A DNA stretch of 51,511 nt. Origin: Methylococcales bacterium (GTDB lineage: Bacteria > Pseudomonadota > Gammaproteobacteria > Methylococcales > DRLZ01). The stretch spans positions 1 to 51,511 of the forward strand of contig JAZGEP010000209.1 of the NCBI GenBank assembly GCA_036478815.1. The letters run 5' to 3'. Each line of letters begins with the position of its first letter. Positions within the stretch are counted from its first letter, which is position 1. This document shows positions 16,903 to 48,122 of the stretch, piece by piece. The notes beneath the pieces were generated by a model. It saw only the letters and a list, made by a program, of their open reading frames with translations. It was not told the DNA's origin and did not search any database. The translations under genes were made by a program, and so were the position numbers.

Positions 16903-16943
16903 GGCAATGTAAAAAGACTAACTCTAATAGCTGAAAGCATTAC

Positions 16944-19206: not shown

Positions 19207-19249
19207 TGTGATCTGGATCATAGGTGTTTAGCCAAGTCTGTGTTTATAT
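19207..19249 (+). promoter_or_regulatory. CRP-like box TGTGATCTGGATCATA + TG-extended -10 (copy 1 of a conserved module)
   Basis: Box at 19207-19222, embedded in the 28-bp near-palindrome AACACCTGTGATCTGGATCATAGGTGTT. TGtTTATAT at 19241-19249. The box centre is ~29.5 bp upstream of the hexamer (about -41.5). Confidence 0.45.
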
Positions 19250-22612: not shown

Positions 22613-22773
22613 TAAGTACCTGAGCATCATTAATTTAACATTTTACTGGTCTTTTTTCTCATCTTCGGCGTTGCAACAACAGTTACATAGCTCACTAGAG
22701 CTAAGTTGTTGCGCCTTGAAGATGAAAAAAAATCCTGCGCAAAATTGTTAAATTAATGATGCTCAGGTACTTA
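22613..22773. mobile_element. MITE, core-2, J-type termini
   Basis: TAAGTACCTGAGCATCATTAATTTAACA ... ACAGTTACATAGCTCACTAGAGC ... TGTTAAATTAATGATGCTCAGGTACTTA. Confidence 0.9.
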
Positions 22774-22835: not shown

Positions 22836-22879
22836 TGTGATCTAGATCATAGGTCGCCTAATCAAGCCTGTGTTTATAT
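22836..22879 (+). promoter_or_regulatory. CRP-like box TGTGATCTAGATCATA + TG-extended -10 (copy 2), upstream of secreted paralog 1
   Basis: Box at 22836-22851 (15/16 match to TGTGATCTAGATCACA). TGtTTATAT at 22871-22879. Lies ~190 bp upstream of ATG 23039. Confidence 0.5.
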
Positions 22880-23038
22880 TGGTATACAGCAATAAGAATT
22901 GGGCCTATAGCTATCTATATAACAGCATATTCTGGGCATCAATGAGGATATCTCTCTATCCGAATTTTTGGTTATTCCTTTAATTCGAGAAAGTTTTGTT
23001 TCTTAAAACGTTATGGTGACATGACCAAGGAGTGTGAC

Positions 23039-24898: not shown

Positions 24899-25026
24899 TG
24901 AGCAATTATTCTGAATCTGTGAGCCTGATGTTTAAAAACTTATCATAGTGGGATTACCAGGTATATTTTATTTCGGTTATTGGAAAAAAGTATACCTGCC
25001 AGCCTGTGATAGTCAATAGATTGACA

Positions 25027-25190
25027 TTAGGGAGCTGGAAACAAATAATCATCCAATATTGCTGGTCTTTTTGTCCGTCTTCTGCGTTGTAGTAACAGTT
25101 ACATAGCCTGCTATGCGCCTGTTACTACCTCTTGAATACGAACAAAAATCCTGCCCAATATTGGACGATTATTTATTTCCAGCTCCCTTA
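25027..25190. mobile_element. MITE, core-2, G-type termini, TTA/TTA flanks, between the two paralog genes
   Basis: TTA-GGGAGCTGGAAACAAATAATCATCCAATATTG ... ACAGTTACATAGCCTGCTATGCGCCTGTT ... CAATATTGGACGATTATTTATTTCCAGCTCCC-TTA. Confidence 0.9.
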
Positions 25191-25252
25191 TTCTCGAAAC
25201 TTCTGGATTCAGGATTTATATCATGTCCCTCGTTATCAAAAAGGAGTGCGAA

Positions 25253-27076
25253 ATGAAAATACGAAAAGTATCAACTCTAGCATCAATTATTTCGGTCATT
25301 GGAGTTTTGTTTTTGACCATTACAGCAGATGTAACGGCCAATACTTATGAATGTCCGCTAAGTCCTACCGAGTTTCAAGTGTCCATTTCCAACCCGGATC
25401 CAGAACCTGAACCGGGGGAATTTCCGGCAGATTTGGATGAGATAATGGGTTATGTGCAGGAAAATAATATTAACTCAGTGAAAGAGTTGATGGATCATTT
25501 ACCCGAACACATGCGTAAAAATTATGCGTTCGTAGCGGAAACACGTGGCTTGGGACATACCAGTACTGAAGAACCGGGACTATTGTTGTTCGGATCAGAT
25601 GGCAGGTTTATGATGAACATGGATACCATGCCGATTTCTCCACGCTACAAAGTTGTTGATATGGCCTATCTCAATGAGAAAGGTGATTGGGAATTTAAGT
25701 CTTTGGATTTCAATATCAGCCCTCCTGTATTAAGCCCTGATGGAGGTAACAACGGTGAATGCCGTCAATGCCATGGACAAGGCGGCGTAAACAGCAACGG
25801 CCCAATGCGACCTTTTTGGGGAACTTATCAGGAGTGGCCCGGATTTTTTTCAGATACCATAGAAAGACAGGAAAGAGTTACACTTCAACAAGCATCTGTG
25901 TTGGCACGCATTGAGAATGGAATGCAAAATTCAGATCGGTTTCATAACCTAATTACCCGGGAGAAATATTTTTTTAAAATCGATCGGTATATTGATTTGC
26001 CTGATCGCGATTATGGCATCAGCCTGACTGTAGCGAATAACGAAATAGGTAGTGCAGCAGCTGAAAGCATTTTTAAGCGTGTTAAGCGTTCACAGCTTTA
26101 TAGTGAGCTGAGGGATGAATATCTGGCTTTGGCATACTGTGCCGGTCAGGGAGTACTCTCTTCAGAAGATAGAATAAATTACACCAGTCTTATACAATCC
26201 CTGGGAGGATCGACCGAAGGTATTACCAACAGATTTGATACTGGTTGGATTGATATCGTTCGGCTGTGGGGGCTGGACCCTTTGCATGAGTTTCCATTAC
26301 ACAAATTAACCCAGGAGTATGCAACGAATACCTTCGTAGAGACTAGATGGAATGTCGGTAACGGTGACCTGCCTGAACAATTGACTTTATTGATACTGTT
26401 AGATTTAGCCGAAAACAATACACAAGTTGATTCGATTCTGCGAAATAGCCAGACATCTTGGGAGATGGATGGTTGTGGAGTTCCCTTTAACAACATGAAG
26501 GAATACTTACAGCATAAAATCTACGCTAATTACACCTTAAAAGGAAATGCTCGACAACTTGCCCGTTCGAGTTACTACGATCAAAACTATCCTCGTTTCA
26601 GCCAATCTATGGAGAATGTCAAAACCGAACTATGCGATTTGCTAGTCAATGATTTTGGGTCTGACACGTCACCATCAACAGAACCTTCCCAGCCATCAGA
26701 ACCTATTGACGATAACAATCTTGATGACACTCCCACCAATAATTCAGATGGCGCATTGTTAGTGACAGGACAATCGGTTTCTATCACACAATCCGAGGAA
26801 GATGCCGAAGACACTTTTTACATAGACGTTCCTGCGGGTACCAACCGATTAGTCATTAGCATTACTGGTGAATTAAGTGATGCTAACTTGGGTAGTGCTA
26901 ATTTATATATTCGTCACGGTTCAAAACCAACCTTATCTGCTTTTGATTGTCGTCCTTACTTCAATGGCAACAATGAAATTTGTAACCAGGAGAATCCGGC
27001 AGCGGGTCGATGGTATGTCACAATTGTAGCATTTGATGCTTATTCCGAAGTTAAGTTGAAAGCTATTATTGAGTAG
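25253..27076 (+). CDS. secreted protein of unknown family, paralog 2 (single CxxCH motif, C-terminal PPC domain)
   Basis: ATG 25253 is preceded by AAAGGAG, in the same RBS context as paralog 1. Signal peptide. CRQCH at 25760-25774. C-terminal pre-peptidase (PPC)-like pattern FYIDVPAGTNRLVISITG...ANLYIRHGSKPTLSAFDCRPY..GNNEICN...GRWYVTIVAFDAYSEV. Confidence 0.8.
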   Translation: MKIRKVSTLASIISVIGVLFLTITADVTANTYECPLSPTEFQVSISNPDPEPEPGEFPADLDEIMGYVQENNINSVKELMDHLPEHMRKNYAFVAETRGLGHTSTEEPGLLLFGSDGRFMMNMDTMPISPRYKVVDMAYLNEKGDWEFKSLDFNISPPVLSPDGGNNGECRQCHGQGGVNSNGPMRPFWGTYQEWPGFFSDTIERQERVTLQQASVLARIENGMQNSDRFHNLITREKYFFKIDRYIDLPDRDYGISLTVANNEIGSAAAESIFKRVKRSQLYSELRDEYLALAYCAGQGVLSSEDRINYTSLIQSLGGSTEGITNRFDTGWIDIVRLWGLDPLHEFPLHKLTQEYATNTFVETRWNVGNGDLPEQLTLLILLDLAENNTQVDSILRNSQTSWEMDGCGVPFNNMKEYLQHKIYANYTLKGNARQLARSSYYDQNYPRFSQSMENVKTELCDLLVNDFGSDTSPSTEPSQPSEPIDDNNLDDTPTNNSDGALLVTGQSVSITQSEEDAEDTFYIDVPAGTNRLVISITGELSDANLGSANLYIRHGSKPTLSAFDCRPYFNGNNEICNQENPAAGRWYVTIVAFDAYSEVKLKAIIE

Positions 27077-27096
27077 CATTAATCCATTCATAGAGC

Positions 27097-27131
27097 AGGA
27101 ACGTGTAAGAAATAATTTCTTACACGTTCCT
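27097..27131 (+). terminator. perfect 16-bp hairpin after paralog 2 (MITE-terminus-like mini-palindrome; possible terminator)
   Basis: AGGAACGTGTAAGAAA-TAA-TTTCTTACACGTTCCT. The arms resemble the A-type MITE terminus GGAACGTGCATGAAATAAC. No T-tract follows. Confidence 0.35.
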
Positions 27132-27373
27132 CTATGTGGGAAAATAAATATCTTTTTTGGAGGATAGGTGAAATAACCATTTATCTATTCTCATTAAATC
27201 CTCACTCCTTAGTGTATGGCTAAGGGATCCCGATACCAGGTGTTTTTAAGAATTTTATCACTTGCATATGCTGAATTCTGAATTGCAATGAATAGATTGA
27301 GTATATACTGATATATCTGGAAAACCATCCGGCGTGTAGTCAAATATTATTACTACTTTCTGAAGGACTCCTT

Positions 27374-29662
27374 GTGGTTTATTTATTCAGATTTATTGTG
27401 TTAGTTGCTACTGCCAATGTAGTGTTTGCCACGCCAAACATCATCACAACGCAGGAATTTGAAATACGCAACGGGCACGCTGAAAAAGCCTTTCAACACG
27501 GTGATTTTGAAAATGCCATCGTTCATTGGTTATCGACGGCAGATGTTTTTGCCAGTCGTGGTGAGACAGCCAAGCAAATCACAGCCTTGATCAGGCTCAG
27601 TGATGCATATCAGGCCATGGGTCAAAACGCAGCTTCAATTATTGCTTTAAATGCGGCTAATACACTGACTGACAAATTGACTGATCAACGTCAAAAAATC
27701 AATATATTTAATAGTTTGAGTGCAGCCTATAGTGCTGCTGGAAAGCATCAAAGAGCCACTGTTTTTGTTCAGCAGGCTATTGAGAAAGCTCGCGCTGCTA
27801 ACGCACCAGGACTCCTTGCCGCAACACTCAATAACCAAGGCAATTTGTTGGTTCGTCAGAAGAAATTGAACCAGGCTGTTGAAGCCTACTCTGAGAGTAT
27901 TCAATTGGCTGACTCTTCAGGAAATCAAATGCTTGCTGCAAAAGCATCGGTTAATTCAGTAATCGCAGCTTTTGAAATGGGAATTGTTGACACTATTGAG
28001 GTGAAGTTACTAATCGCACAAGCGCATTTGGAGAAAATCGCCGATGATCATAATAAAGCCTTTCACTGGATCAGTCTGGGGCAGATAGCGCAGCGCTTGT
28101 CTGTCAATGATGCAAATCAACGTCTCTGGCAGCCTTTCGCCCACCATGCTTTTAAACAGGCAAGCGCTATCGGAAAACGTATTTCAGACGCTCGTGCGAT
28201 CTCTTACGCTACGGGCTATCTAGGTGATCTTTATGCGGCTGAGAATCGATATGACGAGGCATTACAGCTCACTCGGCAGGCGATTTTTGCGATCGAAACC
28301 ATCAATGCCCCTGAAATTTTGTATCGTTGGCAGTGGCAAACAGGTCAAATACTGAAAGCGAAAAGTGAACCCAAAGCCGCTATTCAAGCCTATCAACAAG
28401 CTATCAATACATTGCAGTTGGTACGCCAGGATTTTACAGTTCGACAACTAAGCACATCATCCTTTCGTGAGGAAATTGGTCCTTTATATCTGGAGTTAGC
28501 AGATTTGTTACTGCAATCTAACGATACACTATCAGACCAGGACAAAATTCAACACAATCTGGTTGCTGCACGCAATACCATGGAACAGTTAAAAGCAGCA
28601 GAATTACAAGATTATTTTAAAGATGATTGCGTTGTCAGTTTACAGAAAAAGTTGCGTTCGCTGGAAACTATTGATCAACTGACTGCAGCAATCTATCCGA
28701 TACTGCTTGCTGACCGTACAGAGATTTTACTTAGCTTACCGGAGGGGATAAAACGTTTTACCATTCCAGTTAGCCGCGCTGATGTCACTCAGCAGGTACG
28801 GCTTTTTCGTCAAAATCTGGAAAATCGCACCACACGAGAATATCTTCCACAAGCTCAACAACTTTATCAATGGTTGATTGCTCCGCTCCAATCGACATTA
28901 AATGCGCATCAGATTGAAACATTGATAATGGTGCCTGATGAATTCTTGCGAACAATTCCCATGGCTGCGCTTCATGACGGCGAAGCATTCCTGATCGAAA
29001 AATATGCTATCGCAAACACACCAAGTCTGAGTTTAACCGACCCTAAGCCGCTGGATTTGAATAAAATCCATGTTCTCGCTAGCGGTTTATCGGAAGCTGT
29101 TCAGGGGTTTTCACCCCTGCCTCATGTTGCAGAAGAACTAGCCAACATTCAGAAAACACTTGGCGGTCAAGTGTTATTGGACAATGCATTCCTGCTGAAC
29201 AGAATCCAGAAAGAACTAAAAAACACCTCTTATAATATTGTCCATATTGCTTCACATGGACAATTCAAAAACAATACACAGGAAAACTTCGTATTAACCT
29301 TCGATAAAAAGTTAAATATGGATGCGCTGGAGCAGCTTATTGGACAAAGCAGATTTCGTGATAAACCGGTGGAATTACTTGTCTTGAGCGCTTGTCAAAC
29401 CGCAGCTGGTGATGATCGGGCCGCCTTGGGACTTGCCGGCATTGCTATCAAAGCCGGTGCTCGAAGCGCCGTTGCTACTCTATGGTTTATCAACGATCTG
29501 GCGGCGGCTGATTTGGTGACTGAATTTTATCGTCAACTAAAAGCAACCCACACATCAAAAGCCCAGGCATTACAAAAAGCGCAAATTCACCTCATTAAGA
29601 AACCTGCCTATCACCACCCTTACTTTTGGTCACCATTTTTGTTGATTGGTAATTGGCTTTAA
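27374..29662 (+). CDS. signal-peptide TPR-repeat + CHAT (caspase-like) domain protein
   Basis: 762 aa with a GTG start after GAAGGAC. N-terminal hydrophobic signal FIVLVATANVVFA and ~400 aa of TPR-like helical repeats. CHAT dyad: His in VHIASHG (29255-29257) and Cys in LVLSACQTAAGD (29393-29395). Family-typical ending HPYFWSPFLLIGNW. Confidence 0.9.
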   Translation: MVYLFRFIVLVATANVVFATPNIITTQEFEIRNGHAEKAFQHGDFENAIVHWLSTADVFASRGETAKQITALIRLSDAYQAMGQNAASIIALNAANTLTDKLTDQRQKINIFNSLSAAYSAAGKHQRATVFVQQAIEKARAANAPGLLAATLNNQGNLLVRQKKLNQAVEAYSESIQLADSSGNQMLAAKASVNSVIAAFEMGIVDTIEVKLLIAQAHLEKIADDHNKAFHWISLGQIAQRLSVNDANQRLWQPFAHHAFKQASAIGKRISDARAISYATGYLGDLYAAENRYDEALQLTRQAIFAIETINAPEILYRWQWQTGQILKAKSEPKAAIQAYQQAINTLQLVRQDFTVRQLSTSSFREEIGPLYLELADLLLQSNDTLSDQDKIQHNLVAARNTMEQLKAAELQDYFKDDCVVSLQKKLRSLETIDQLTAAIYPILLADRTEILLSLPEGIKRFTIPVSRADVTQQVRLFRQNLENRTTREYLPQAQQLYQWLIAPLQSTLNAHQIETLIMVPDEFLRTIPMAALHDGEAFLIEKYAIANTPSLSLTDPKPLDLNKIHVLASGLSEAVQGFSPLPHVAEELANIQKTLGGQVLLDNAFLLNRIQKELKNTSYNIVHIASHGQFKNNTQENFVLTFDKKLNMDALEQLIGQSRFRDKPVELLVLSACQTAAGDDRAALGLAGIAIKAGARSAVATLWFINDLAAADLVTEFYRQLKATHTSKAQALQKAQIHLIKKPAYHHPYFWSPFLLIGNWL

Positions 29663-29673
29663 ATCCTCGTTCC

Positions 29674-29834
29674 TTAGAAACGTGCATGAAATAACGTGAA
29701 CATTCTGGCTTGTCTTTTTGCTCCTGACGAAACCATCTCAATCGTTGCGTAGAACAACTATGCGCCTCTTTAGATCGTTTCATCAGCAACAAAAATCCTG
29801 CACCATCATTGTTCAAGTTATTCCACGCACGTTT
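29674..29834. mobile_element. MITE, core-1, A-type termini, immediately after the CHAT gene stop
   Basis: TTAGAAACGTGCATGAAATAACGTGAACA ... core-1 hairpin ... CATTGTTCAAGTTATTCCACGCACGTTT. Preceded by the E-type 19-mer TTAAATCCTCGTTCCTTAG (29659-29677). Confidence 0.85.
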
Positions 29835-29883
29835 GTATTTTAGACAACCATAAAGCCGCCCCATATGTGAAAAAAAACAGACC

Positions 29884-29927
29884 TGTGATCTAGCTCATAG
29901 CTCCACAAACCAAAAATGTGTTTTTAT
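29884..29927 (+). promoter_or_regulatory. CRP-like box TGTGATCTAGCTCATA + -10-like element (copy 3), upstream of the DUF928 gene
   Basis: Box at 29884-29899. TGtTTTTAT at 29919-29927. Lies ~200 bp upstream of ATG 30100. The same flanking block (CCTGTGATCT...GTGTTT.TAT) as copies 1 and 2. Confidence 0.45.
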
Positions 29928-30099
29928 AGGGCTATAGGGAAAGAACTGGTTTGGTTTCCATGATCTTATTGACGGAAACTCATTATCGGACGGACTTTTT
30001 TCAGTAATGCTGCATATTCTTACCTATGCATGAACAGTAATTATTAAATCCTTGTTCCTCAGTATCGTGAACATTTATCTAGATAGTAAGAGAATAATT

Positions 30100-30960
30100 A
30101 TGAATATCAACGTCACCTTGTTATTTTATCTTGGGATATTTTGTCTCGGAATAGCCTTTTTGGCGTCCAATGGATTTGCCGAGAATTTACACAAGCCTGA
30201 CCTTCAAAAACGCCTCTTGGGAGCTGATGAAAATACAGAAGGATCGATCCTGAAAAAAACAGATGTACGGTCTAATATTAATGATCAGCAGGTAAAACCT
30301 TCCCAGCGCCCAGTTTACACTCCTCCATTTCTTGGTGCTCCATCTGCCAATCGACTGATTGGCATGGCTGTGCGTGGGATCGACCATGAAGATTTGTTGT
30401 TATCGGTGCTTACGCCAGAGCATACTGGATTAACCTCCCATGCTCAGCCGGTATTTTATTGGTATCTATCCAAGCCGGTTCCCAAATCTTATCAGTTTAT
30501 TGAATTTGTGTTGAGCTCTGATAAATCAACAACACCTGTTTTACGAACACGGTTAGATAAACCCTCAAAAGGGGGTATACAGAAAATACCATTAGCGGAC
30601 TACAACATCAGTCTGATACCAGAAGTAGAATACAGGTGGTCGATTGCATTAGTGTCAGATGCTAATGCACGTTCACTTGATATTGTTAGCAGTGGAAACG
30701 TCAAACTGGCTAAGCCCAATAAGGTATTGGAGACAAGTCTTCAAGCAGTCTCTATTGCACAACATCCTGCTATTTTCGCCCAAGCAGGATTATGGTATGA
30801 AGCGATGACTAGTCTCGTTAATCAAGTTGAGAAGCAACCTGAAAACTTGACACACACTCAAAATTTAGCAGCACTTCTTGAGCAAGCAGGATTACAGGAA
30901 ATAGTTACCCATATGAATAATAATGCTATCAGCATGGGCATTGTAGATAAACAAAAGTGA
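30100..30960 (+). CDS. DUF928-like secreted protein
   Basis: ATG 30100 gives the signal peptide LLFYLGIFCLGIAFLASNGFA. Family-like landmarks from memory: PPFLGAP..R..G..VRG, LTPEHTGLTSHAQPVFYWYLSKP, and C-terminal AGLWYEAMTSL. Confidence 0.7.
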   Translation: MNINVTLLFYLGIFCLGIAFLASNGFAENLHKPDLQKRLLGADENTEGSILKKTDVRSNINDQQVKPSQRPVYTPPFLGAPSANRLIGMAVRGIDHEDLLLSVLTPEHTGLTSHAQPVFYWYLSKPVPKSYQFIEFVLSSDKSTTPVLRTRLDKPSKGGIQKIPLADYNISLIPEVEYRWSIALVSDANARSLDIVSSGNVKLAKPNKVLETSLQAVSIAQHPAIFAQAGLWYEAMTSLVNQVEKQPENLTHTQNLAALLEQAGLQEIVTHMNNNAISMGIVDKQK

Positions 30961-31031
30961 ATGACAGGATAGATACACTATCTGATTAATCGCTGCTTGT
31001 TTTGTTCAGCATGAAATGATGTTTCTCAAGC

Positions 31032-33752
31032 TTAATATTGTTGATTGCAATCAACCCTCATGGCTGAATACAGGATGCTTTTTTCTAATCCTGAATATAA
31101 AGTATCACGATCATTCTCTGGTGAATGCAGGAATGACGCGCCTTTATTAATCGGATATTGAGGTGGAGTCTCATCAATCGTTGTATAATCCAAAAAATCT
31201 GATGGTATCAAATCTCCAGGCTTAACCGGTATTCCACCGCGCCCTTTTACCACAAACCGACTCAAGTTACTTCCGGAACGGGCGGCACATCGCTTACTCA
31301 GCTGCTGTGAAGCATTCATTAATGTATCTGGAAGAACCGCAATGCTACCACTGATGTTGGTATCTGGTGTTAGACTGAGTAAGCCATCCATGCTTACTTC
31401 TGATGAGGCAGTTACCTCGTTGCTGGGTGATTCGAAGACTAAGCCTGAAATAGTGATATTACCACCTGGACCTCCAGCAGCGTCAGCTTTTACTTTACTG
31501 TTGTTGAAAGCCACGATTGGAGTATTAATGATAATATCACCTCCTTTACCATTATCGGCGCGAACACTGGCTTCAATGCTGCTATCACTTAACTGCAAAC
31601 TGTTACCATTGATTATTTTGATATTGCCTGCATCTGGTTGAGTTGATTCAGTTGTAATAGCTGACCCGTTCTGTATACGAAACGTGTTAGATAATGTGAT
31701 AACAATATCGCCAGATTGATTACTCTCGGACTGTCTTGTTTTGTCAGAATTGTCACGAACAATATTTGAACCGAGCGATGCGCCATTATCCAAAAGAATG
31801 TCGTCGGCGGTTATTTTTAAATCTCCGCTTTTACCTGTGCCTGTTGTAGTTGCACTTATGTTTGATTGACTGACTTCTATGTGTTTTGCGTTGATTTGTA
31901 TCTCTCCGGCATTACCGGCAATTGCGGTAGCGGCGTTGATGAGTGATTTATTGGAGATGTTAAGAAAATCAGCATTAATTTTCACATTACCTCCTTTTCC
32001 TGCGTTCAAACTGGTAGTAAGAATGCCAGAAACATCATAGATGTCTATGTGGTCAGCTTTTAATGAAATATTGCCAGAATCTACACTGGAATCAGCAGAA
32101 ATGATCAAATTACCATCTTTATCGGCCTGTAAGGGAATACTGGTAATCAATGAACCACTAAATACTTTTATACTCTTGGCTATTATTGAAATATTGCCAG
32201 CAGATCCAGTATTATCAACTTGTTCTGTAAGGGAAGTAGTCGCAATAAATCCATTATTATAAATTTCCAGTTGACCAGTATTAGCATTAATTGTTAAATT
32301 TCCTCCATTTCCAGAACCATTCGTAAAGACACTGACTATGGCTGAATCATGAATTCTTGGATCCACAGAAACAATCTGTAAATCACCTGTATTTCCTGAA
32401 CTCTTGGTAAAAATTCCGATTGAGCTTCCATCAGAAACATCTAGATAATCAGCATCAATCATCATATTACCTGCATTACCTGCACCCGAGGTAGATGATT
32501 GAATTACAGCACCATCACTGACTTCTAGATTATCAGAATTGATGACTATATTTCCTGCGTTGCCTGCATTTCTCGCTTCTGTGAATAGTCCAGGAACAAA
32601 TTCAGACACATTACCCTCAAGTAGAATAGAATTCGCATTGATTATCAAATCTCCACCTTGACCTGTAGAATGAGTTGTTGAGTTAATGCGTGTCCTATGT
32701 GTTAATTTAATTCCATCAACGTCCAGCATAATGTTACCTGCGTTACCTTCACCTGATGCGAAGGTATCAATACCGCTTTGAGGGGGGGATTCTATATCAT
32801 CTGTTTTCGGAACCCCGTTGATATTTAAATTACCTGTTAAAGCAATATCAATATTACCGCCATTACCGTTTGTTGTATTCGCGGCAATAAATGTGTTATC
32901 CATAATCAATTGTCCACCGCGAATAAATATTGTTCCGGCGGTATCAGCGCTAACATCAACTTCGGCTTTTGTTTTTGATTCAATCGAAACACGTGGAACA
33001 TTCGGGTCATGACTAAGATGAATATTTCCAAATTGAGTAAATGACGTGGTATCCACCCTTGATTCATCCACAATCACTGCTCCGACAGAGTCAACGCTCA
33101 CCAGGTTAATTTGCCCACTGGGTGCGTAGAGTGAACTGTTTTTACTCGTGATGTTCCCTCCGACTAAGGATAGTGTTGAATCTGTTGGTACCTTAAGCAC
33201 GGTGTTTGAGACAGAAATGCCTGCAGGATGACTGTTTAAAAAGCCAAAGGATTCAGGTGCAGCTGTTGTTATTATCGGGCTGATGGTTGCTGTGCCATTG
33301 TTAAAATGCACGCCATCTTTAAACCCTAGATAGTCGGCAGTACTGGCATGAAAAGAACCTTGCACATTAAGGCTCGCATTCTCACCAAAAATTACGCCGG
33401 CTGGATTTAGAAAATATAGATTAGCTCCTGAGATAGTAGAACGTATTGTGCCGTCAATGTTTGATGCTTGCCCACCTGTGACGCGCCCAATAACATTCTG
33501 GATGTCAGTTGAACCACTAAACACAGCACTTTCTGTGTTGTTAAGATTGAATTGTCCAAAGCTGTGAAATAAATTACCACCAGCACGTTGGCCCAAGTCC
33601 TCAGTGATTTGATAATTTGGACCTGAAAGAGTGCCAGCAGCTCCCACAGAGCCATCGAGAGTCACTTCGCTCTGGAGAGAAGAGCTGAAAATACAGATGA
33701 TAATCAGTAGCAAACAATCTTGTGTCGAGAATTTTTGAGTACCGTTTTTCAT
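31032..33752 (-). CDS. two-partner-secretion exoprotein (TpsA-like; filamentous-haemagglutinin N-terminal domain + beta-helix)
   Basis: 906 aa with SD AAGGAG 8 nt upstream and a signal peptide. TPS domain GNLFHSFGQFNL ... VIGRVTGG ... ANLYFLNPAGVIFG ... GSFHAST. Long run of G-N-A/G-G-N-I/M beta-helix repeats. C-terminal CAARSGSNLSRFVVKGRGGIPVKPGD module. Confidence 0.9.
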   Translation of the reverse strand: MKNGTQKFSTQDCLLLIIICIFSSSLQSEVTLDGSVGAAGTLSGPNYQITEDLGQRAGGNLFHSFGQFNLNNTESAVFSGSTDIQNVIGRVTGGQASNIDGTIRSTISGANLYFLNPAGVIFGENASLNVQGSFHASTADYLGFKDGVHFNNGTATISPIITTAAPESFGFLNSHPAGISVSNTVLKVPTDSTLSLVGGNITSKNSSLYAPSGQINLVSVDSVGAVIVDESRVDTTSFTQFGNIHLSHDPNVPRVSIESKTKAEVDVSADTAGTIFIRGGQLIMDNTFIAANTTNGNGGNIDIALTGNLNINGVPKTDDIESPPQSGIDTFASGEGNAGNIMLDVDGIKLTHRTRINSTTHSTGQGGDLIINANSILLEGNVSEFVPGLFTEARNAGNAGNIVINSDNLEVSDGAVIQSSTSGAGNAGNMMIDADYLDVSDGSSIGIFTKSSGNTGDLQIVSVDPRIHDSAIVSVFTNGSGNGGNLTINANTGQLEIYNNGFIATTSLTEQVDNTGSAGNISIIAKSIKVFSGSLITSIPLQADKDGNLIISADSSVDSGNISLKADHIDIYDVSGILTTSLNAGKGGNVKINADFLNISNKSLINAATAIAGNAGEIQINAKHIEVSQSNISATTTGTGKSGDLKITADDILLDNGASLGSNIVRDNSDKTRQSESNQSGDIVITLSNTFRIQNGSAITTESTQPDAGNIKIINGNSLQLSDSSIEASVRADNGKGGDIIINTPIVAFNNSKVKADAAGGPGGNITISGLVFESPSNEVTASSEVSMDGLLSLTPDTNISGSIAVLPDTLMNASQQLSKRCAARSGSNLSRFVVKGRGGIPVKPGDLIPSDFLDYTTIDETPPQYPINKGASFLHSPENDRDTLYSGLEKSILYSAMRVDCNQQY

Positions 33753-33807
33753 CAGTTTATTCTCCTTGTGCCAGAAAGTGCATTACATACTTTGCTCAAT
33801 CTGTTGC

Positions 33808-35616
33808 CTATAATAACCGTGCATTAACCTGAAAATGGATTCCAAAATCTTGAATATCATGTTCTGTGCCTTCTTTAATCGATCGAAAAGGTAGGCCCCA
33901 ATATAGCTCTGAGTGCAACATTGGCGATGGATCCCAAAGAAGACCCAATCCCCAACTGCCGATCGTATTAGGTTCGGGTGATGCAAGGTCGCTATTTTTT
34001 GACCATCCAAAGTCAACGAAGGTTGCCAGTTGTACATTGCCATCCGTCATTGTTTTGCTGAGACCGGGAATTGGGATGCGAATAATGGGAACTCGCCATT
34101 CCAAAGAGGTGGTAGCACCATTGTCTCTTACAAATTGGTTTTCACGATAACCGCGTACACTGTGTCGACCACCAACAGAAAACTTTTCCAAGGGTAACAA
34201 GGAGTCGTTAGCCAGTTGTGCATCTGCGCGAAACAGTATTTGACTGTCTAATATTGGCAGACGCATAACCCATTGGAATTGGCCTAGCCAAGTAAAGAAT
34301 TGACCATCTGGATCACCATTACTATTGTGAGTTGCATCGAATGCATTGATTCCCCAATTCAATGTCGAACGGGCCGCAATGACTTGTGTTTGACTACGAT
34401 CTAGCCATTCTTGAGTAAAGCGAAGCACAGAGATTTTACTCACACCTTTAGCATTGCCTTCCTCCGGCACGCCTAAAGAGAAGGAAAAAGGTTGGTTATC
34501 GAGAAAGGTCTTACTGCGTCTGTATTCAAAAGCGAGTGTTGCAGAAAAGGTTTGGTTGGGTGTTCTGTAAAAAGGATGGGACAGTGCAATGCCATAGGTT
34601 TCCGAGCGACTCTCAATAGAGATGTCGTTGATCGGCTTTTCTACGACATCCGAATCGCTGTTTTGGTAATAGAGATTGAGACGGGTATCGTATGCTGTTA
34701 GTGGTAATGAGTAAGATCCATTAAAGTCGTGCAGTCCTTCCATGCCAGTGTAACTAAAAAACAGCCCATCTCCAAATCCTGTTAAATTACGATGTCGGAA
34801 CCATATTTTGCCACTGATACCACCGATACTTGGTGAGCGGTCATTTGCCGCGACTGCACCGATTTCATAAGGTCTTGCTTCAGTGACAGCAATGTTCATG
34901 CGGCTTTCTCCAGGTTTTAGCCCAGGATGCAACTCTGCGTTGATTCTTTCAATCAGTGGATCTTGCTGCAACAACAACAGATGTTTCTGTACATTGGTGA
35001 TATTCAGTGGCGGTCCGAAGCTTTGTGCGATTCGATCCTCAATATATGAAGAGCGTAACCAATGGTTGCCGCTAAGTGTCATTTTGGACAATTCCCCTTC
35101 AATGACTTGCAGTTGTATTATGCCATCCTGAACCTGTTGGTCTGGAAGGATGACACCTGAGTTAATATAACCTTGATCAATATAATAGCGGGTCAGTTGG
35201 TATCGAAGTGCTTGGAGTTGTTCATTGGTAACGGTGCGGTTTTCGTAGTGAGTGGTAATTTTTTTGAGTGTTTGGTCAGAAAATACGGTGTTGCCCGTTA
35301 TCCTGATTTCTTTAATAAAAACGCTAAATGTAGTGGATAGCAGCGCATCTTTTTCTGGTGCGATTTCAACCGGTGGCAACCGAAACTCAGGTTTTTGTGG
35401 AAATTGATTGAGTTTTAAGTCAGGTAGTTTTTTCGATTCATTGCTGAGCGCATCGGGAGCGGTAATTACAGGTGTGTTTATTGTTGGGCTACTAGGCGCT
35501 GGAGATCCAGCGTGGCTTGCCTTTGGCTGAAAACACAAACAAGATAATAGTGAGATAATAATGGACTTGATTAATATTTCCATTTGATCTTGATGTGTTA
35601 ACAGTATCTTGTTCAC
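33808..35616 (-). CDS. TpsB outer-membrane transporter (ShlB/FhaC/HecB family, POTRA + beta-barrel)
   Basis: 602 aa. POTRA-like IKEIRITGNTVFSDQTLKKI and loop-6 motif FSVGGRHSVRGYRENQ. Lies 55 bp upstream of the TpsA gene on the same strand. Start uncertain (GTG 35616 or ATG 35583). Confidence 0.85.
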   Translation of the reverse strand: MNKILLTHQDQMEILIKSIIISLLSCLCFQPKASHAGSPAPSSPTINTPVITAPDALSNESKKLPDLKLNQFPQKPEFRLPPVEIAPEKDALLSTTFSVFIKEIRITGNTVFSDQTLKKITTHYENRTVTNEQLQALRYQLTRYYIDQGYINSGVILPDQQVQDGIIQLQVIEGELSKMTLSGNHWLRSSYIEDRIAQSFGPPLNITNVQKHLLLLQQDPLIERINAELHPGLKPGESRMNIAVTEARPYEIGAVAANDRSPSIGGISGKIWFRHRNLTGFGDGLFFSYTGMEGLHDFNGSYSLPLTAYDTRLNLYYQNSDSDVVEKPINDISIESRSETYGIALSHPFYRTPNQTFSATLAFEYRRSKTFLDNQPFSFSLGVPEEGNAKGVSKISVLRFTQEWLDRSQTQVIAARSTLNWGINAFDATHNSNGDPDGQFFTWLGQFQWVMRLPILDSQILFRADAQLANDSLLPLEKFSVGGRHSVRGYRENQFVRDNGATTSLEWRVPIIRIPIPGLSKTMTDGNVQLATFVDFGWSKNSDLASPEPNTIGSWGLGLLWDPSPMLHSELYWGLPFRSIKEGTEHDIQDFGIHFQVNARLL

Positions 35617-35712
35617 AGGTAGATGATAATGGAGAGTGGTGATGAGGCACTATCATGGCACTTTTATTATACTCTTATTAAATTAATACATAGATTAAAA
35701 TTTCTTTAATTT

Positions 35713-37635
35713 CTATTTGTTTTTTCCTGTAACCTGATAAATATCAACGTTATCTTTTTTTCCGCGTAGTTCAACATTTCCTATTATTTTCAGTTGAAAT
35801 TGATTACCGATATAATCCAGCATTTTTCCACCAATGAGAATGCGACAGGGTTGATTAAAATAATCTGGATTAAATTGGGATTTATCAAAATCCTCCAGCC
35901 GTGCTGCTGTATTAACTGTGTCACCATAGATGGTATATTCCATGCGGTCTCGGCCACCAATACTGCCTGTTGCTAATGACCCTGTAAACAAGCCGATACG
36001 CATTCCTACGACCGGTAGCCGCCGCTGCTTCCATTGCTTATTCAACTGAATTAACCTTTCGTTCATTGCCAACGCACAGCTAATCCCATTGATCGCATCC
36101 TGGCGAATTTCTGATACAGACTGGCGTGGCACAGGTATTCCAAATCCAGCGAAAATGGCATCGCCAACAAAGTGGATAACAATGCCTTCATGATTGGCAA
36201 CAAGTGGAGTCATTTCAGCTAAATATTCGTTGAGCCAGTCAAATAAATCTTCAGGCTTCAGTTGTTCTGCTAACGCAATAAAGTGTTGCAGGTCAGTAAA
36301 CATGACTGTGGCTGTAGTTTTTTGTGGTCGGGGACGACCGCCGGCATAAAAAAGTTCCTGTTGTCGCCAGATATCTTCGGCAATTTCGGGTGCAACGTGT
36401 TTTGAAAATAAACTCATGAGTTGCGAGCGTTTCACTTTTTCCAGTGTGGCTTTGTGGGCAGTGGTTAATACACTGGATAATAACCAAGCCAGTGTCGGTG
36501 TGGCGACAATTAGCCATATGCCATTCATAAATAAAAGTGCTGTAAAGCCAAGTAATGCAGCAAGTCCTGCCATCCACACCACGATTAACCGCCCAACAGA
36601 ATGTTGCCGCAGACTCATGAGTACTCCGAACACCGTCCACAGCAAAATCCATAACATTTCTTGCCTGGTAGTGGCTGTTTTCATTGGCGTGTGTCCTTGC
36701 TGTGCAATTCTAAGGATTTGATCAACAATAGCTGCGTGCATCATTACACCGCTAGCCCGGTTGTTCTGTTCTGCACCCCGGTTACAAGACGTATAATAAA
36801 AGTCTTTCACACTGTCTGCGATAACTCCGACCAACACTATTTTATTCTTGAAATCCTCAAGACGAACATTTCCATGCCTGAATTGTTTTAGTGTATATCG
36901 AGGTATCAACTCAGGCGGTTTGCAAAAATCCAGAAGGAACTGATAGCCTTTTGCATCGGCATCCACATATCCACCATCATTCTTTTTGAAAGGGACAATA
37001 ACGGTCGATTGTAGCTTGAGGTTGGTAGTATTCGGCTGAGGAGCAATACCTTCTGCTTGTAAATATATCAGCGCGATGCGCAGAGGTAGCGAATAAAAAA
37101 CCTCTTTGCCATCATCTAAAAACAACAAACCACGTCGAATAATGCCATCACGGTCGGGAAGTGCGTCGATAAAGCCAAATTGATCAGTATTGAACAACGC
37201 AGGCGGAGGATTGACTCTCGAGGATTGTTGATCACTATACTTTATTGAAGTGATTATGTTTTGATGCTGTTTAAATAGGTTCTCCAAAGTTTGATGGCCT
37301 GGAGGAACGGGCGTATCTCGATAGATATCAATACCAATGACACGCGCTTGGTATTGTATTAGTTGAGTCAATATTTCTGCTAATAACTGATCTGAAATTG
37401 GCCAGCTGCTTAATTGACTAATATCATTTTCTGTTATAGTGATAGCAGTGATGGGAGGGACAGTAGAAGCGATAGGACTATGTCGTATCAGTTTATCATA
37501 AGCAGACAACTCCAAAAACTCTGACACACCACTTTTATAGAAAATCAATACAGAACAATAGGCTAGAACAACAATTAAAATACTGGCCATACTTTGCTTG
37601 ATTGCATGGGTTAAAAATCGGAATAATTTTATCAC
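35713..37635 (-). CDS. CHASE2 sensor-domain class III adenylate/guanylate cyclase
   Basis: 640 aa. TM1, then a ~290-aa periplasmic CHASE2-like region, three TMs and a cyclase domain (VMFTDLQHF, HFVGDAIFAGFG, RIGLFTGSLATGSIGG..RMEYTIYGDTVNTAARLE). The GTG start overlaps the crp-like stop. Confidence 0.9.
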   Translation of the reverse strand: MIKLFRFLTHAIKQSMASILIVVLAYCSVLIFYKSGVSEFLELSAYDKLIRHSPIASTVPPITAITITENDISQLSSWPISDQLLAEILTQLIQYQARVIGIDIYRDTPVPPGHQTLENLFKQHQNIITSIKYSDQQSSRVNPPPALFNTDQFGFIDALPDRDGIIRRGLLFLDDGKEVFYSLPLRIALIYLQAEGIAPQPNTTNLKLQSTVIVPFKKNDGGYVDADAKGYQFLLDFCKPPELIPRYTLKQFRHGNVRLEDFKNKIVLVGVIADSVKDFYYTSCNRGAEQNNRASGVMMHAAIVDQILRIAQQGHTPMKTATTRQEMLWILLWTVFGVLMSLRQHSVGRLIVVWMAGLAALLGFTALLFMNGIWLIVATPTLAWLLSSVLTTAHKATLEKVKRSQLMSLFSKHVAPEIAEDIWRQQELFYAGGRPRPQKTTATVMFTDLQHFIALAEQLKPEDLFDWLNEYLAEMTPLVANHEGIVIHFVGDAIFAGFGIPVPRQSVSEIRQDAINGISCALAMNERLIQLNKQWKQRRLPVVGMRIGLFTGSLATGSIGGRDRMEYTIYGDTVNTAARLEDFDKSQFNPDYFNQPCRILIGGKMLDYIGNQFQLKIIGNVELRGKKDNVDIYQVTGKNK

Positions 37636-38399
37636 TCGTAACCACTAGCAATATCTTCCAGAGTATCACTATCCAGAATGGTGATGCTGAGGCTTTGTCC
37701 CCCAAGAGAGACTAATCCTTGTTTTTTCCATTTATTAAATTGTCTGTTAACGCTTTCACGCGTGGTACCAATCTCATTTGCTATGTCTTGTTGCGATTTT
37801 TTCCAGTCTAAATAGACGCCTTCAGGCGTTTCTTCTCCTGTTATTTCTGCTGCTTTAATCAACAAACGCGCCAGACTCACAGAAACAGGTAGTAAACCGA
37901 GAACTTCTACTCTATCGTTGGTATCTCTCAACTTCTTACACAAAACTTTCAGCCAGTGAATAGCGATATCAGGATTTTTTTTCAAAAAAGGCAAAAAATC
38001 ACCGCTTCTGATCGTCAATAGCGTCGTTTCTCCAATTGCCGTAGCCGTTGCCGAACGCTGCATGCCATCGATAAAGGCAATTTCACCAAATATTTCTCCT
38101 CGAAATGTAGTATTTAAAATAATTTCTTTACCATCATCCGAGCTGGTGCTGATACGCACTTTGCCATCTAATACTGCCAACAGACTATCTCCGAAATCTC
38201 CTTTTTGAAAGATGATTTGCCCATTCGAATAATGATTCTCAGAAGAAAAAGACAAGATTTTATCGAGTTCTTCAGCAGTTATTCCTCTGAAAAAAATGTT
38301 GTTTGCCAGTAAATTTCGTTTGTCAGGGAGCAAATATGTCACAACGACTTTTCTCCTTCGGCGTAAATGGTTTGACAGATTGACACTATGATAGAACAA
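37632..38399 (-). CDS. Crp/Fnr-family cNMP-binding transcriptional regulator
   Basis: cNMP pocket FGEIAFIDGMQRSATATA. HTH SQQDIANEIGTTRESVNRQF, whose recognition helix RESVNR (37743-37760) keeps the R-E-x-x-x-R pattern of E. coli CRP (RETVGR). The ORF-track start is TTG 38399; GTG 38342 after GAAGGAGA is an alternative. Confidence 0.85.
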   Translation of the reverse strand: MFYHSVNLSNHLRRRRKVVVTYLLPDKRNLLANNIFFRGITAEELDKILSFSSENHYSNGQIIFQKGDFGDSLLAVLDGKVRISTSSDDGKEIILNTTFRGEIFGEIAFIDGMQRSATATAIGETTLLTIRSGDFLPFLKKNPDIAIHWLKVLCKKLRDTNDRVEVLGLLPVSVSLARLLIKAAEITGEETPEGVYLDWKKSQQDIANEIGTTRESVNRQFNKWKKQGLVSLGGQSLSITILDSDTLEDIASGYE

Positions 38400-38688
38400 G
38401 TGGTGTTAGATTATTTCTGTACTCTCGGGTGATGAGGTATTACAAACGAAATATTAGCATTTTGTCAGTGTGATGGTTCGTGTGAACCAAGTGAAAATAT
38501 TAGCCGTAGTCTTTCTACAGCAAGGTTTTCGAAAACGACTGTTTGCGAAGCGGCTGAACTGGATGAACAGTGGTTACATGTCTGCAAGAAATCAAATCAA
38601 CGTTGGATATTATATGTCGTTGATTATGCTGAAAATACTGTGCTTGCCTCTGTTTTCGGTCTATGTAAAGATGTTGTTTTCAAGGAAT

Positions 38689-38857
38689 TTAAGGTGGTTT
38701 GACGAAACAAAGTTACCAACCTTGCTGGTCTTATTGTTCCTGACCAACGCAATCTCAATCGATACGTAGAATGACTATGTGCCTCTTGAGATAGTTCGGC
38801 CAGAATCAAAAATCCTGCGTCAAACTTTCGTATATTATTAATATCCTCGCTCCTAAG
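38689..38857. repeat. MITE, core-1, B-type left terminus, right end replaced or degenerate, ending in an E-type motif
   Basis: TTAAGGTGGTTTGACGAAACAAAGTTACCAACCTTGCTGG ... CAAAAATCCTGCG, then TTAATATCCTCGCTCCTAAGG. Confidence 0.7.
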
Positions 38858-45152: not shown

Positions 45153-45177
45153 GAATGTATCATGCTTTACAGACTAC

Positions 45178-45354
45178 TAAGGAACGTGCATGAATTAACT
45201 TGAACATTTTGGCTAGTCCTTTTGTTCGTCTTCCTTTAACCGTCAATATAGCCTTGACCGGAGTATTGAGTCCGCATTTCTCACCAGTCTGATGAGAAAT
45301 GCGGGTTAGTTAATTGTGCTATGCAACTGCTGTCGCAACTTTGAAGACGAAACC
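45178..45354. repeat. disrupted A-type/core-2 MITE carrying an internal foreign segment
   Basis: TAAGGAACGTGCATGAATTAACTTGAACA...GTCCTTTTGTTCGTCTTC, then ~80 bp of unrelated sequence with the hairpin CCGCATTTCTCA...TGAGAAATGCGG, then TGCTATGCAACTGCTGTCGCAACTTTGAAGACGAAA. Confidence 0.6.
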
Positions 45355-45517
45355 TTAGGCAATTGGAAAAATAACCCACCCACCTTACTTGCCTTTTTGT
45401 CCGTCTTCGATCTTGTTGCTTCGGATACATAGCTTGCTATGTGCTCTACGCAACAAGATCGAAGACAAACAAAAATTCTTTGCAATATGGGTGAGTTATT
45501 TATTTCCAGTTGCCTAA
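45355..45517. mobile_element. MITE, core-2, G-like termini, inserted at the end of the disrupted copy
   Basis: TTAGGCAATTGGAAAAATAAC ... GATACATAGCTTGCTATGTGCTC ... GTTATTTATTTCCAGTTGCCTAA. Confidence 0.85.
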
Positions 45518-47992: not shown

Positions 47993-48122
47993 TCCTGGGA
48001 TTTTGTTTCTGCCTGAGTCAATAATCTGAAAGGATCATCGTCGTTTTACGCAACGATTAAGATAGTTGAGTCAGGAGTAAAAAGACAAGTTTGAATGCTC
48101 AAATTTTTCATGTACACTCCTA
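47993..48122. repeat. degenerate core-1 MITE remnant
   Basis: CTGGGATTTTGTTTCTGCCTGAGTCAA...CGCAACGATTAAGATAGTTGAGTCAGGAGTAAAAAGACAAG...TCAAATTTTTCATGTACACTCCTA. Confidence 0.55.

Follow-up and report, generated by a model that had tools for sequence, protein, structure and literature searches.

TPR-CHAT, DUF928, TpsA, TpsB, and CHASE2 cyclase genes as a widespread candidate module for envelope secretion and signaling

Results

Organization of the locus

The window examined here is the whole of a 51,511-nucleotide (nt) stretch from a Methylococcales bacterium (assembly GCA_036478815.1, contig JAZGEP010000209.1). Between positions 27374 and 38399 it carries six genes, which encode a TPR-CHAT protease, a DUF928 protein, the two-partner secretion (TPS) proteins TpsA and TpsB, a CHASE2 receptor with a nucleotide cyclase domain, and a Crp-family regulator that binds cyclic nucleotide monophosphates (cNMPs). 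A first-pass annotation, made from the sequence alone, had read these genes as a candidate uncharacterized system for envelope secretion and signaling. The six open reading frames (ORFs) lie at the coordinates that it had claimed, and all six of its domain calls, including CHAT, DUF928, and CHASE2, were borne out by a Pfam scan of the six proteins, from which the domain scores below are taken.

27374..29662, + strand: TPR-CHAT (caspase-fold) protease, predicted to be periplasmic, 762 aa; CHAT (PF12770) 3e-63 plus TPR
30100..30960, + strand: DUF928 protein, 286 aa; Pfam DUF928 9e-34
31032..33752, - strand: TpsA, 906 aa; PF05860 TPS domain 8e-34, TIGR01901 (adhes_NPXG) 1e-19
33808..35616, - strand: TpsB outer-membrane transporter, 602 aa; ShlB 2e-29, POTRA_2 6e-20, Omp85 7e-12
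35713..37635, - strand: CHASE2 receptor nucleotide cyclase, 640 aa; CHASE2 (PF05226) 1e-55, Guanylate_cyc 8e-22
37632..38399, - strand: Crp-family cNMP-binding regulator, 255 aa; cNMP_binding (PF00027) 2e-23, HTH_Crp_2 (PF13545) 8e-15, PF00325 7e-7

For crp (TTG) and tpsB (GTG), the start given is simply the first one possible, and an internal ATG at 35583 may be the real start of TpsB. Several finer points of the first-pass annotation can be read directly in the DNA. The stop codon of crp overlaps the start codon of the cyclase gene as GTGA, and the strong Shine-Dalgarno sequence of tpsA is AAGGAG, 8 nt ahead of the ATG. The CHAT and DUF928 proteins, and also TpsA and TpsB, open with hydrophobic, signal-like segments. 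No transposase, toxin/immunity, or phage domains turned up in scans of the cluster, and a PADLOC search for defense systems gave generic cyclase and cNMP-domain matches only.

Conservation of five of the six genes

DUF928 homologues were aligned and one genome per GTDB species was scanned, which yielded 51 loci; the six-frame ORFs of these loci were searched with the window proteins. Counts for the 25 loci that span 15 kb or more are 22 for the CHASE2 cyclase, 21 for TPR-CHAT, 22 for TpsB, and 23 for TpsA; all five genes are found together in 16. Most of the incomplete loci end at a contig or locus edge. Of the 40 loci with both a DUF928 gene and a CHASE2 cyclase gene, 35 have the two directly side by side. 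Six phyla are represented (Alpha-, Beta-, and Gammaproteobacteria of the Pseudomonadota, Desulfobacterales of the Desulfobacterota, Verrucomicrobiota, Nitrospirota, Methylomirabilota, and Gemmatimonadota), with the Gemmatimonadota locus consisting of a cyclase–DUF928 pair. The genes occur in at least 10 different orders, so shared synteny of close relatives cannot account for their linkage. As an internal control, the remaining ORFs of the loci were clustered, and none of the further families recurred in more than four loci.

The co-occurrence that the first-pass annotation had expected is seen around DUF928 in six phyla, as counted in DUF928-seeded loci. Co-conservation across phyla, shuffled gene order, and Rosetta-stone fusions that join TpsA to TPR-CHAT and CHAT to CHASE2 (both described below) strongly support the view that the five families form one functional unit, apparently an uncharacterized envelope secretion/signaling system. 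The proposal that all six genes make up such a unit stands for TPR-CHAT, DUF928, TpsA, TpsB, and the CHASE2 receptor, on the strength of co-conservation and fusions; it fails for Crp, which is not a core member. No published description of the gene set, functional or otherwise, was found in the full-text literature, a body that leaves most subscription journals outside its coverage and in which an earlier comparative-genomics mention could have been missed. The only mention found is of a CHASE2–DUF928 adjacency in Nostoc punctiforme, where it was regarded as strain-specific (PMC5587647).

Cyanobacterial versions of the module

The first-pass annotation had stated that these genes also occur together in filamentous cyanobacteria, and the same five families are indeed present on cyanobacterial plasmids. 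Plasmid pNFSY04 of Nostoc flagelliforme encodes a response regulator, a CHASE2 protein, DUF928, TPR-CHAT, a 2288-aa TPS protein, and ShlB, and Calothrix NIES-4105 has the same set. A cross-tabulation of tblastn matches placed CHASE2 and CHAT matches no more than about 20 kb apart on at least 17 cyanobacterial plasmids, at least 10 of which also have a TpsB match within about 25 kb.

The cyanobacterial CHASE2 protein lacks a cyclase domain. It ends in a kinase-like tail, in which the segment EALCNVGKHA appears to be like the N-box of histidine kinases, and a response regulator gene adjoins. To judge from the sequences, the sensor keeps the same four partners throughout, and the output domain and cognate regulator are exchanged as a pair. 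Signaling from the CHASE2 protein to the neighboring regulator would predict such an exchange.

Fusions of CHASE2 to caspase-like domains also occur. On plasmid pCC7120alpha of Nostoc sp. PCC 7120 (locus L052, 7801-10146), a CHAT domain stands at the N terminus of the CHASE2 protein, without a signal peptide and ahead of the first transmembrane (TM) segment, and a DUF928 gene follows directly. A metacaspase–CHASE2 fusion has been reported in Trichodesmium (PMC2853523). On a plasmid of Kovacikia minuta (NZ_CP083584.1, 34321-35436), a CHASE2 match falls under a gene annotated as TIR domain-containing.

TpsA and its export partner

The TPS secretion domain of TpsA (aa 42-232, ~33057-33629) is followed by Gly/Asn-rich repeats, a region taken to be β-helical. 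The protein ends in a conserved element (aa ~805-906, 31035-31340) that contains the motif RCAARSGSNLSRFVVKGRGGIPVKPGDLIPS. In full, the motif has the form L-x-x-R-C-A-A-R-x(5-8)-S-S-F-V-V-x-G-R-G-G-[ILV]-P-x-x-P, which can be summarized as C-x(8-12)-SSFVV-x-GRGG-x-P, and it ranges from Proteobacteria to cyanobacteria. After it come 30-90 variable residues and then a cysteine 2-5 residues from the end. In the window protein the two cysteines are Cys822 (31287-31289) and Cys902 (31047-31049), the sole two in the mature 906-aa protein. At least 15 TpsA orthologues likewise have only these two. Of the top family representatives, 84 showed the motif with a tail of at most 150 aa, and 63 of these 84 share the pattern. 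The two cysteines probably form a disulfide-closed loop.

A word-indexed search with the TpsA C terminus returned two matches, and an exhaustive profile search was used instead. It retrieved 10,367 cluster representatives at E ≤1e-3, a number inflated by the β-helix repeats within the profile. The C terminus of TpsA is, as far as its sequence goes, a conserved element and not a variable toxin. Contact-dependent inhibition, or a polymorphic-toxin TPS system, was considered for the pair and rejected: the C terminus is conserved, no extra ORF lies between the genes, and no toxin domains were found by Pfam.

TpsB has a POTRA domain plus an Omp85-type barrel. The two genes lie on the same strand, 55 nt apart. 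A POTRA plus Omp85/ShlB-type barrel in TpsB and an NPxG-type TPS domain on the adjoining TpsA together place the pair in the type Vb secretion class, and from this we infer that TpsB exports TpsA. The nearest plasmid-borne homologues of TpsB are cyanobacterial ShlB genes that adjoin CHAT genes.

TPR-CHAT protease and its fusions to TpsA

The TPR-CHAT protein consists of a signal-like N terminus (aa 1-20), TPR repeats (~aa 100-410), and a CHAT domain (aa 493-760). The His/Cys dyad named in the first-pass annotation corresponds to His628 (29255-29257) and Cys674 (29393-29395), and both residues are invariant in 29 of 29 orthologues, nearly all of which open with signal-peptide-like segments. A CHAT domain with a conserved His...Cys dyad assigns the window protein to the caspase fold of clan CD. 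By these features it looks like an active periplasmic protease. We know of no characterized periplasmic CHAT protease, and no sequence relation of the window CHAT protein or of TpsA to solved structures was found.

In several organisms the protease is part of the TpsA chain. Locus L044 encodes one 1663-aa protein made up of the TPS domain, the β-helix, a CAARSG..RFVV motif, TPR, and CHAT. Scanning five long-tailed members of the TpsA C-terminal family revealed four TPS...TPR-CHAT fusions and one protein with TPS and TPR without a CHAT match. In two more fusions, the TpsA motif directly precedes the TPR-CHAT part. Read in this way, the fusions suggest that the TpsA junction is the substrate of the TPR-CHAT protease.

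CHASE2 receptor cyclase

The receptor begins with TM1, continues with a CHASE2 domain predicted to be periplasmic (aa ~28-340) and a TM bundle, and ends with a class III cyclase domain (aa ~438-636); the hydropathy segments are at aa 11-38 and 346-391. This is the arrangement of a CHASE2 receptor, with CHASE2 between an N-terminal TM segment and a TM bundle that leads to a cytoplasmic output domain. The AlphaFold2 model of the CHASE2 domain is a confident α/β structure (predicted local distance difference test score (pLDDT) 87.9), and no match to its fold was found in the PDB (best E 0.43).

Alignment to CyaB and CyaC shows that the catalytic Asp, Asp, Asn, and Arg are present in the window cyclase. 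Across the module, both metal-binding Asp residues and the transition-state Asn are kept in 37 of 37 cyclases and the Arg in 36 of 37, which suggests that these enzymes are probably active. The Lys that specifies adenine in CyaB and CyaC (IDKFVGD and VDKFVGD) is His in the window cyclase domain (VIHFVGD; 35713-36375). This position varies among the module cyclases (Asp 16, Lys 11, Gln 4, Asn 3, and His, Arg, and Ser 1 each), and its Thr partner is kept in 29 of 37. Because the base-specifying Lys is replaced and variable, the product cannot be assumed to be cAMP; the label of adenylate cyclase would be premature for the window enzyme, and the neutral "cNMP" of the first-pass annotation was the right wording.

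DUF928 protein

The 286-aa DUF928 product is 100% identical to a database protein annotated from a Methylococcales metagenome-assembled genome (MAG), which places the organism among the relatives of gammaproteobacterial methanotrophs and not among the cyanobacteria. A signal peptide is followed by a disordered N-terminal stretch, an Ig-like β-sandwich (aa ~100-205), and TPR-like hairpins (aa 208-284). Fold matches of the AlphaFold2 model (pLDDT 77.5) in the PDB are weak: a generic Ig-like sandwich, TPR-like helices, and a weak match to MtxA. Judged by its model, DUF928 looks like a binding or adaptor protein and not an enzyme, and it is a candidate periplasmic partner of the CHASE2 domain.

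The disordered region, of about 70 residues, carries the motif Y-x-PP-x-RGAP-xx-R-x-GGG-x-RG (PPxxGAP...R.G..RG), which is conserved across phyla. Its Arg/Gly-rich part lies at 30277-30390 (aa ~60-97), with the consensus R-[VI]-GGG-[TS]-RG in most phyla. A recognition motif common to the TpsA C terminus and the DUF928 N terminus was also sought and rejected (hhalign probability 0.04). The Arg/Gly-rich motif loosely recalls what we take to be the conserved GGGEG(R/K) loop of ribosomal protein uL2; the likeness is short and of low complexity, and it may be a coincidence. uL2 has been reported as an activator of the CHASE2 cyclases of Sinorhizobium meliloti (PMC7529298). In two loci, L030 (8948-10555, a Chthoniobacter MAG) and L043 (7448-9260, Achromatium sp. 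WMS2), two tandem DUF928 genes follow the CHASE2 cyclase gene.

Crp, other cNMP-binding proteins, and the regulatory box

The window regulator combines a cNMP-binding domain with a C-terminal helix-turn-helix of the Crp type, which makes it a member of the CRP/FNR family. Its best solved relative is Clr of S. meliloti (7PZA, E 2.4e-32; next best 9e-24). It contains a phosphate-binding RSA and the recognition helix TRESVNR, and RESVNR resembles RE(T/M)VGR, the main-cluster motif of CRPs that read TGTGA (PMC10127613). A Crp-type regulator (E ≤1e-18) was found in 9 of the 51 loci. Some cNMP-binding protein is present in 19 of 51 and lies within 1.5 kb of the module in 18 of 51, with architectures that include Crp-type, stand-alone cNMP domain, glutaminase-STAS-cNMP, MMPL-cNMP, SpoIIE-cNMP, and cNMP-histidine kinase. 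By this pattern Crp is a variable accessory and apparently not a core member. Among the unusual receivers are the glutaminase-STAS-cNMP_binding proteins beside the CHASE2 cyclase/DUF928 pair in L004 (7441-9324) and L037 (9699-11537), which are of gammaproteobacterial type; L004 also encodes an MMPL-cNMP_binding protein.

Two of the Crp-type boxes in the window are as follows.

29884..29899, + strand: Crp-type operator candidate TGTGATCTAGCTCATA, part of a conserved CCTGTGA-N6-TCATAGC block; the DUF928 ATG follows 201 nt downstream
22836..22851, + strand: further Crp-type box TGTGATCTAGATCATA, upstream of the 23021-24898 gene

The box CCTGTGA-N6-TCATAG is kept upstream of DUF928 in the window and in its three nearest relatives, L001, L002, and L003 (Methylococcales), where the spacers have otherwise diverged. 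Copies are also found at 22836 and 19207 (19207-19222) in a shared, promoter-like block of about 60 nt, so that DUF928, the 23021 gene, and the 19993 gene are each preceded by one of three near-identical boxes (TGTGATCT.G.TCATA). A TATATT-like element follows the box at a spacing that would center it near -42. The arrangement suggests a small local Crp regulon that reaches past the conserved module, and the 23021-24898 gene may belong to that regulon, yet lies outside the module. The rest of the loci (~660 kb) show the box pattern nowhere but in front of the gene for the closest Crp orthologue, that of L012, where it is a perfect palindrome. L012 is also the only case in which an Escherichia coli-type CRP box was found near the module in other clades with Crp neighbors. 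Enrichment of the CRP consensus across the window was tried as a criterion and rejected (20 matches versus 35 expected at up to two mismatches and 3 versus 2.8 at up to one); the case for the box is made by its conserved position and extended identity.

Flanking genes and repeats

The cluster is flanked by housekeeping genes for phosphoglucomutase, glycogen phosphorylase, an isoamylase-type enzyme, fumarase, and NagZ. Three large genes lie just upstream of the CHAT gene (19993-22179, 23021-24898, and 25223-27076). The second and third are tandem paralogues with 72-74% nt identity and a C-terminal PPC domain, strong in the 25223 gene and weak in the 23021 gene. The 19993-22179 gene has no Pfam match and only a faint zinc-metalloproteinase-like stretch (aa 559-604). 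The PPC paralogues (23021-27076) and the 19993 gene were considered as extra module members and rejected, as none has homologues in any of the 51 loci. Farther away and unrelated to the module, the gene at 14100-16586 (- strand) encodes an 828-aa protein with an unusual combination of a thioredoxin-like DUF255 (DsbH-type), a GlcNAc-2-epimerase-like region, and a C-terminal DsbD_N domain.

Repeats of about 150-160 nt, partly palindromic, occupy many intergenic spacers of the window. Two copies lie in or next to the gene block.

29670..29839, no strand assigned: interspersed repeat copy of ~160 nt, partly palindromic, like a miniature inverted-repeat transposable element (MITE) or repetitive extragenic palindromic (REP) element, in the CHAT–DUF928 spacer
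38679..38827, no strand assigned: copy of the same ~160-nt family, outside the gene block, upstream of crp

The first-pass annotation had described the block as bounded by MITEs. A copy does lie beyond crp, at 38679-38827; the copy at 29670-29839, which matches 3919-4076 at 94%, is internal, and the left spacer (27077-27373) is empty. With at least nine copies of the ~160-nt element across the window, the element is no marker of the block. The other copies are at 3362-3528, 3909-4078, 16737-16903, 45173-45227, 48024-48123, 49384-49538, and 51316-51492. A second repeat family (~85-130 nt) is found at 4-98, 1990-2116, 17007-17089, 22646-22772, 25062-25191, and 45388-45515.

Discussion

The five families are inherited jointly, all five proteins carry export or membrane signals, and the CHAT dyad and the cyclase residues are intact. 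The locus is best explained as a single copy of an envelope module of five genes that is widespread and whose output is chosen locally. For how the module works, our best explanation, to which we would give an even chance, is a tethered TpsA filament that is processed by periplasmic CHAT and sensed by CHASE2 with DUF928, with feedback through a cNMP and Crp. TpsB would export the β-helix of TpsA to the cell surface, and TpsA would stay tethered by its C-terminal element, which would not pass the TpsB pore and would remain in the periplasm. The periplasmic TPR-CHAT protease would bind and cut at or near the TpsA junction, and the filament would thereby be matured or released. The CHASE2 receptor with the secreted DUF928 protein would report across the inner membrane on the state of the surface and periplasmic apparatus, the fused class III cyclase would make a cyclic nucleotide of uncertain identity, and the co-translated Crp-type regulator would read this nucleotide. 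Crp would then act on CCTGTGA-N6-TCATAG boxes, including those upstream of DUF928 and of a few neighboring genes, to complete a feedback loop.

The fusions, the TpsA motif with its Cys pair, and the Crp-type box at DUF928 give circumstantial support to a mechanism of shedding by CHAT and sensing by CHASE2. By analogy, the module most resembles a regulated surface adhesin or antenna coupled to outside-in second-messenger signaling. A more specific version can be offered only tentatively. Here the TpsA antenna would be anchored by its Cys loop, a stimulus at the surface would let CHAT cut the junction, and the freed periplasmic fragment, or DUF928, would be the ligand of CHASE2. The whole would then be a protease-activated ("tethered-ligand") trans-envelope receptor, with cyclases that have lost the adenine-specifying Lys and possibly signal via a nucleotide other than cAMP.

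Several observations weigh against the mechanism or limit it. All 51 loci were seeded with DUF928, so that the gene frequencies are conditional on DUF928. The CHAT domain of the Nostoc sp. PCC 7120 fusion would lie on the cytoplasmic side of CHASE2, a misfit with a purely periplasmic protease. The second cysteine is missing in some TpsA proteins (Verrucomicrobiota, Desulfobacterales, L030, and L039), so a Cys hook cannot be universal, and the GRGGxP portion of the motif is degenerate in the L044 fusion. A single recognition site for CHAT shared by TpsA and DUF928 is not supported, given the hhalign value. CRP-consensus matches in the window are not above chance, and the window CHAT gene has no such box. 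The substrates, the signaling direction, and the stimulus are ones that we infer, and CHASE2 may sense the pathway or may instead control it.

Parts of the proposed mechanism have precedents. In Pseudomonas aeruginosa, a cysteine hook at the C terminus of CdrA keeps it in CdrB (PMC7616799), and the periplasmic cysteine protease LapG cuts CdrA off (PMC4694147). A receptor in the inner membrane couples that system to a second messenger. The genes of the window predict a similar arrangement, with a TpsA protein exported by TpsB, a C-terminal Cys pair, a periplasmic cysteine protease, and a membrane receptor. The components differ, however. The window protease is a caspase-fold TPR-CHAT protein and not LapG, and the receptor is a nucleotide-making CHASE2 cyclase that probably signals outside-in, whereas LapD binds c-di-GMP and works inside-out. 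DUF928 has no counterpart in Cdr/Lap, and the messenger in the window would be a cNMP read by Crp. No LapG- or LapD-type domains were found in the Pfam scan of the six proteins (no LapG/LapD homology search was made), and the likeness to Cdr/Lap is one of functional analogy: the window system may work like Cdr/Lap without being a member of it.

The sensing half recalls the CHASE2 cyclases CyaD1, CyaD2, and CyaK of S. meliloti, which perceive an extracellular proteinaceous signal by way of NsrA, an outer-membrane β-barrel protein, and exert their effect through Clr, a Crp-like regulator (PMC13001267, PMC7529298, PMC5498481). Both systems have a CHASE2 class III cyclase with an adjoining gene for a Crp-like regulator (clr lies next to cyaD1), and the Clr-activated gene for the uncharacterized periplasmic protein SMc02178 beside cyaD1 is matched in the window by the DUF928 gene with its Crp-type box. 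The papers cited here on the S. meliloti cascade, however, make no mention of a CHAT protease, TpsA, or DUF928. The cyaD1 neighbor encodes a FecR-domain protein (PMC5498481), and a FecR-domain protein likewise adjoins a CHASE2 cyclase in Phyllobacterium, whereas Pfam found no FecR domain in the window cluster. The Clr box GTNNC-N4-GNNAC also differs from the TGTGA-N6-TCATA boxes of the window. Searches by tblastn with a rhizobial CHASE2 cyclase or with the window CHASE2 domain returned no Sinorhizobium records, and no CHAT-query match to Sinorhizobium is among the matches listed. The "BiofilmReg" operon of Burkholderia, which encodes a response regulator, a LysM/FecR protein, a CHASE2 histidine kinase, and DUF4136 and has a biofilm phenotype (PMC5192318), is another case in which the gene for a CHASE2 receptor stands beside those for a secreted periplasmic partner and a cognate transcription factor. 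That operon has a kinase output, a FecR/LysM partner, and no TpsAB or CHAT, whereas the window has a cyclase, DUF928, TpsAB, and CHAT. That CHASE2 receptors elsewhere also pair with a secreted partner argues for CHASE2 and DUF928 as a sensor pair.

For the protease, the type III-E CRISPR Craspase component Csx29 is a familiar TPR plus CHAT protein with a caspase-like His/Cys dyad; it is cytoplasmic and RNA-guided. The window TPR-CHAT protein differs in having a signal peptide and in lacking a sequence match to any solved CHAT structure. Taken as a whole, the module is by analogy a functional counterpart of CdrAB/LapG/LapD and of the CHASE2-cyclase/Clr cascade, from which it differs in its protease family, in the logic of its receptor, and in having one more dedicated protein.

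Other readings of the same genes must be considered. If DUF928, or the CHASE2 domain, and not TpsA were the substrate of CHAT, TpsA and TpsB would be a surface receptor in the manner of NsrA or FecA; a stimulus would let CHAT cut the disordered N terminus of DUF928, and DUF928, once cut or removed, would switch the CHASE2 cyclase. We consider this possible, if unlikely. It agrees with the 70-residue disordered N terminus of DUF928, whose Arg/Gly-rich motif is kept across phyla, with the DUF928 gene nearly always adjoining that of CHASE2, with the FecR-domain protein in the equivalent place beside rhizobial and Burkholderia CHASE2 receptors (PMC5192318), and with the requirement of the S. meliloti CHASE2 cyclases for an upstream outer-membrane protein (PMC7529298). 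The recurrent fusion of TPR-CHAT right after the TpsA junction motif and the conserved Cys pair of TpsA are, however, left unexplained. Such a relay and the processing of TpsA are compatible and not mutually exclusive. It is also conceivable, though improbable in our judgment, that two independent systems stand side by side, a TpsAB–CHAT secretion unit and a CHASE2–DUF928–cNMP sensing unit. Each half can indeed be met without the other: the 20-kb locus L004 has the CHASE2 cyclase and DUF928 without TpsAB or CHAT; the DNA retrieved for L012 and L039 encodes CHAT, DUF928, TpsA, and TpsB but no cyclase; the ShlB–CHAT pair on plasmid NZ_CP040288.1 of Nostoc sp. C057 is ~28 kb from the nearest CHASE2 match; and the window genes themselves lie on two converging strands. 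But all five lie together in 16 of the 25 long loci, in spite of at least 10 orders across six phyla and cyanobacteria as well, and this is most simply read as selection for linkage. The two halves are moreover interleaved in loci such as L017 (TpsB-CHAT-cyclase-DUF928) and L016 (DUF928-TpsA-TpsB-CHAT-cyclase), and CHAT–CHASE2 fusions exist.

A role in conflict or cell death, with CHASE2 sensing envelope damage or attack, a caspase-like and cyclic-nucleotide response (compare Pycsar and CHAT/TIR), and TpsA as a contact-dependent effector, strikes us as improbable. The cytoplasmic CHAT fused to CHASE2 in Nostoc sp. PCC 7120, the CHASE2 match under a TIR-annotated gene on the Kovacikia plasmid, the CHASE2–metacaspase fusion of Trichodesmium (PMC2853523), a match of the cyclase domain to Pycsar cyclase models at 1e-21, and the non-canonical, variable base-specifying residue all point in that direction. 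The CHAT protein of the module, however, carries a signal peptide and so does not face the cytoplasm; the C terminus of TpsA is conserved across phyla and not polymorphic, and there is no toxin/immunity pair; and the neighborhood is a housekeeping one (glycogen metabolism, fumarase, and NagZ). The PADLOC matches are generic (class III cyclase and cNMP domain) and include no defense-specific component, and the receiver is a transcription factor and not a killing effector. Membership in Pycsar was rejected on the same grounds, the cNMP receptor being a Crp-type regulator and not a TIR or TM effector. The tethered, CHAT-processed TpsA filament sensed by CHASE2 and DUF928 stays our preferred explanation.

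Overall, the module is real, widespread, and unstudied. According to the papers cited here, CHASE2 has no known ligand or signal (PMC10581220, PMC5192318); it is carried by cyclases, kinases, GGDEF proteins, and caspase-like proteins with a part in the control of biofilm, motility, and symbiosis. DUF928 has no assigned function; the module is a first concrete clue to the roles of both. It ties CHASE2, DUF928, and a periplasmic CHAT protein to a compact set of partners, a tethered TpsA filament and TpsB, and it draws attention to a group of class III cyclases that should not be presumed to make cAMP. Because many phyla carry the set, tractable cyanobacteria among them, questions about CHASE2 and DUF928 are directly testable. 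If the mechanism is true, the module would represent a second way, not homologous to the first, of controlling the display of a type Vb adhesin by a protease and coupling it to a second messenger.

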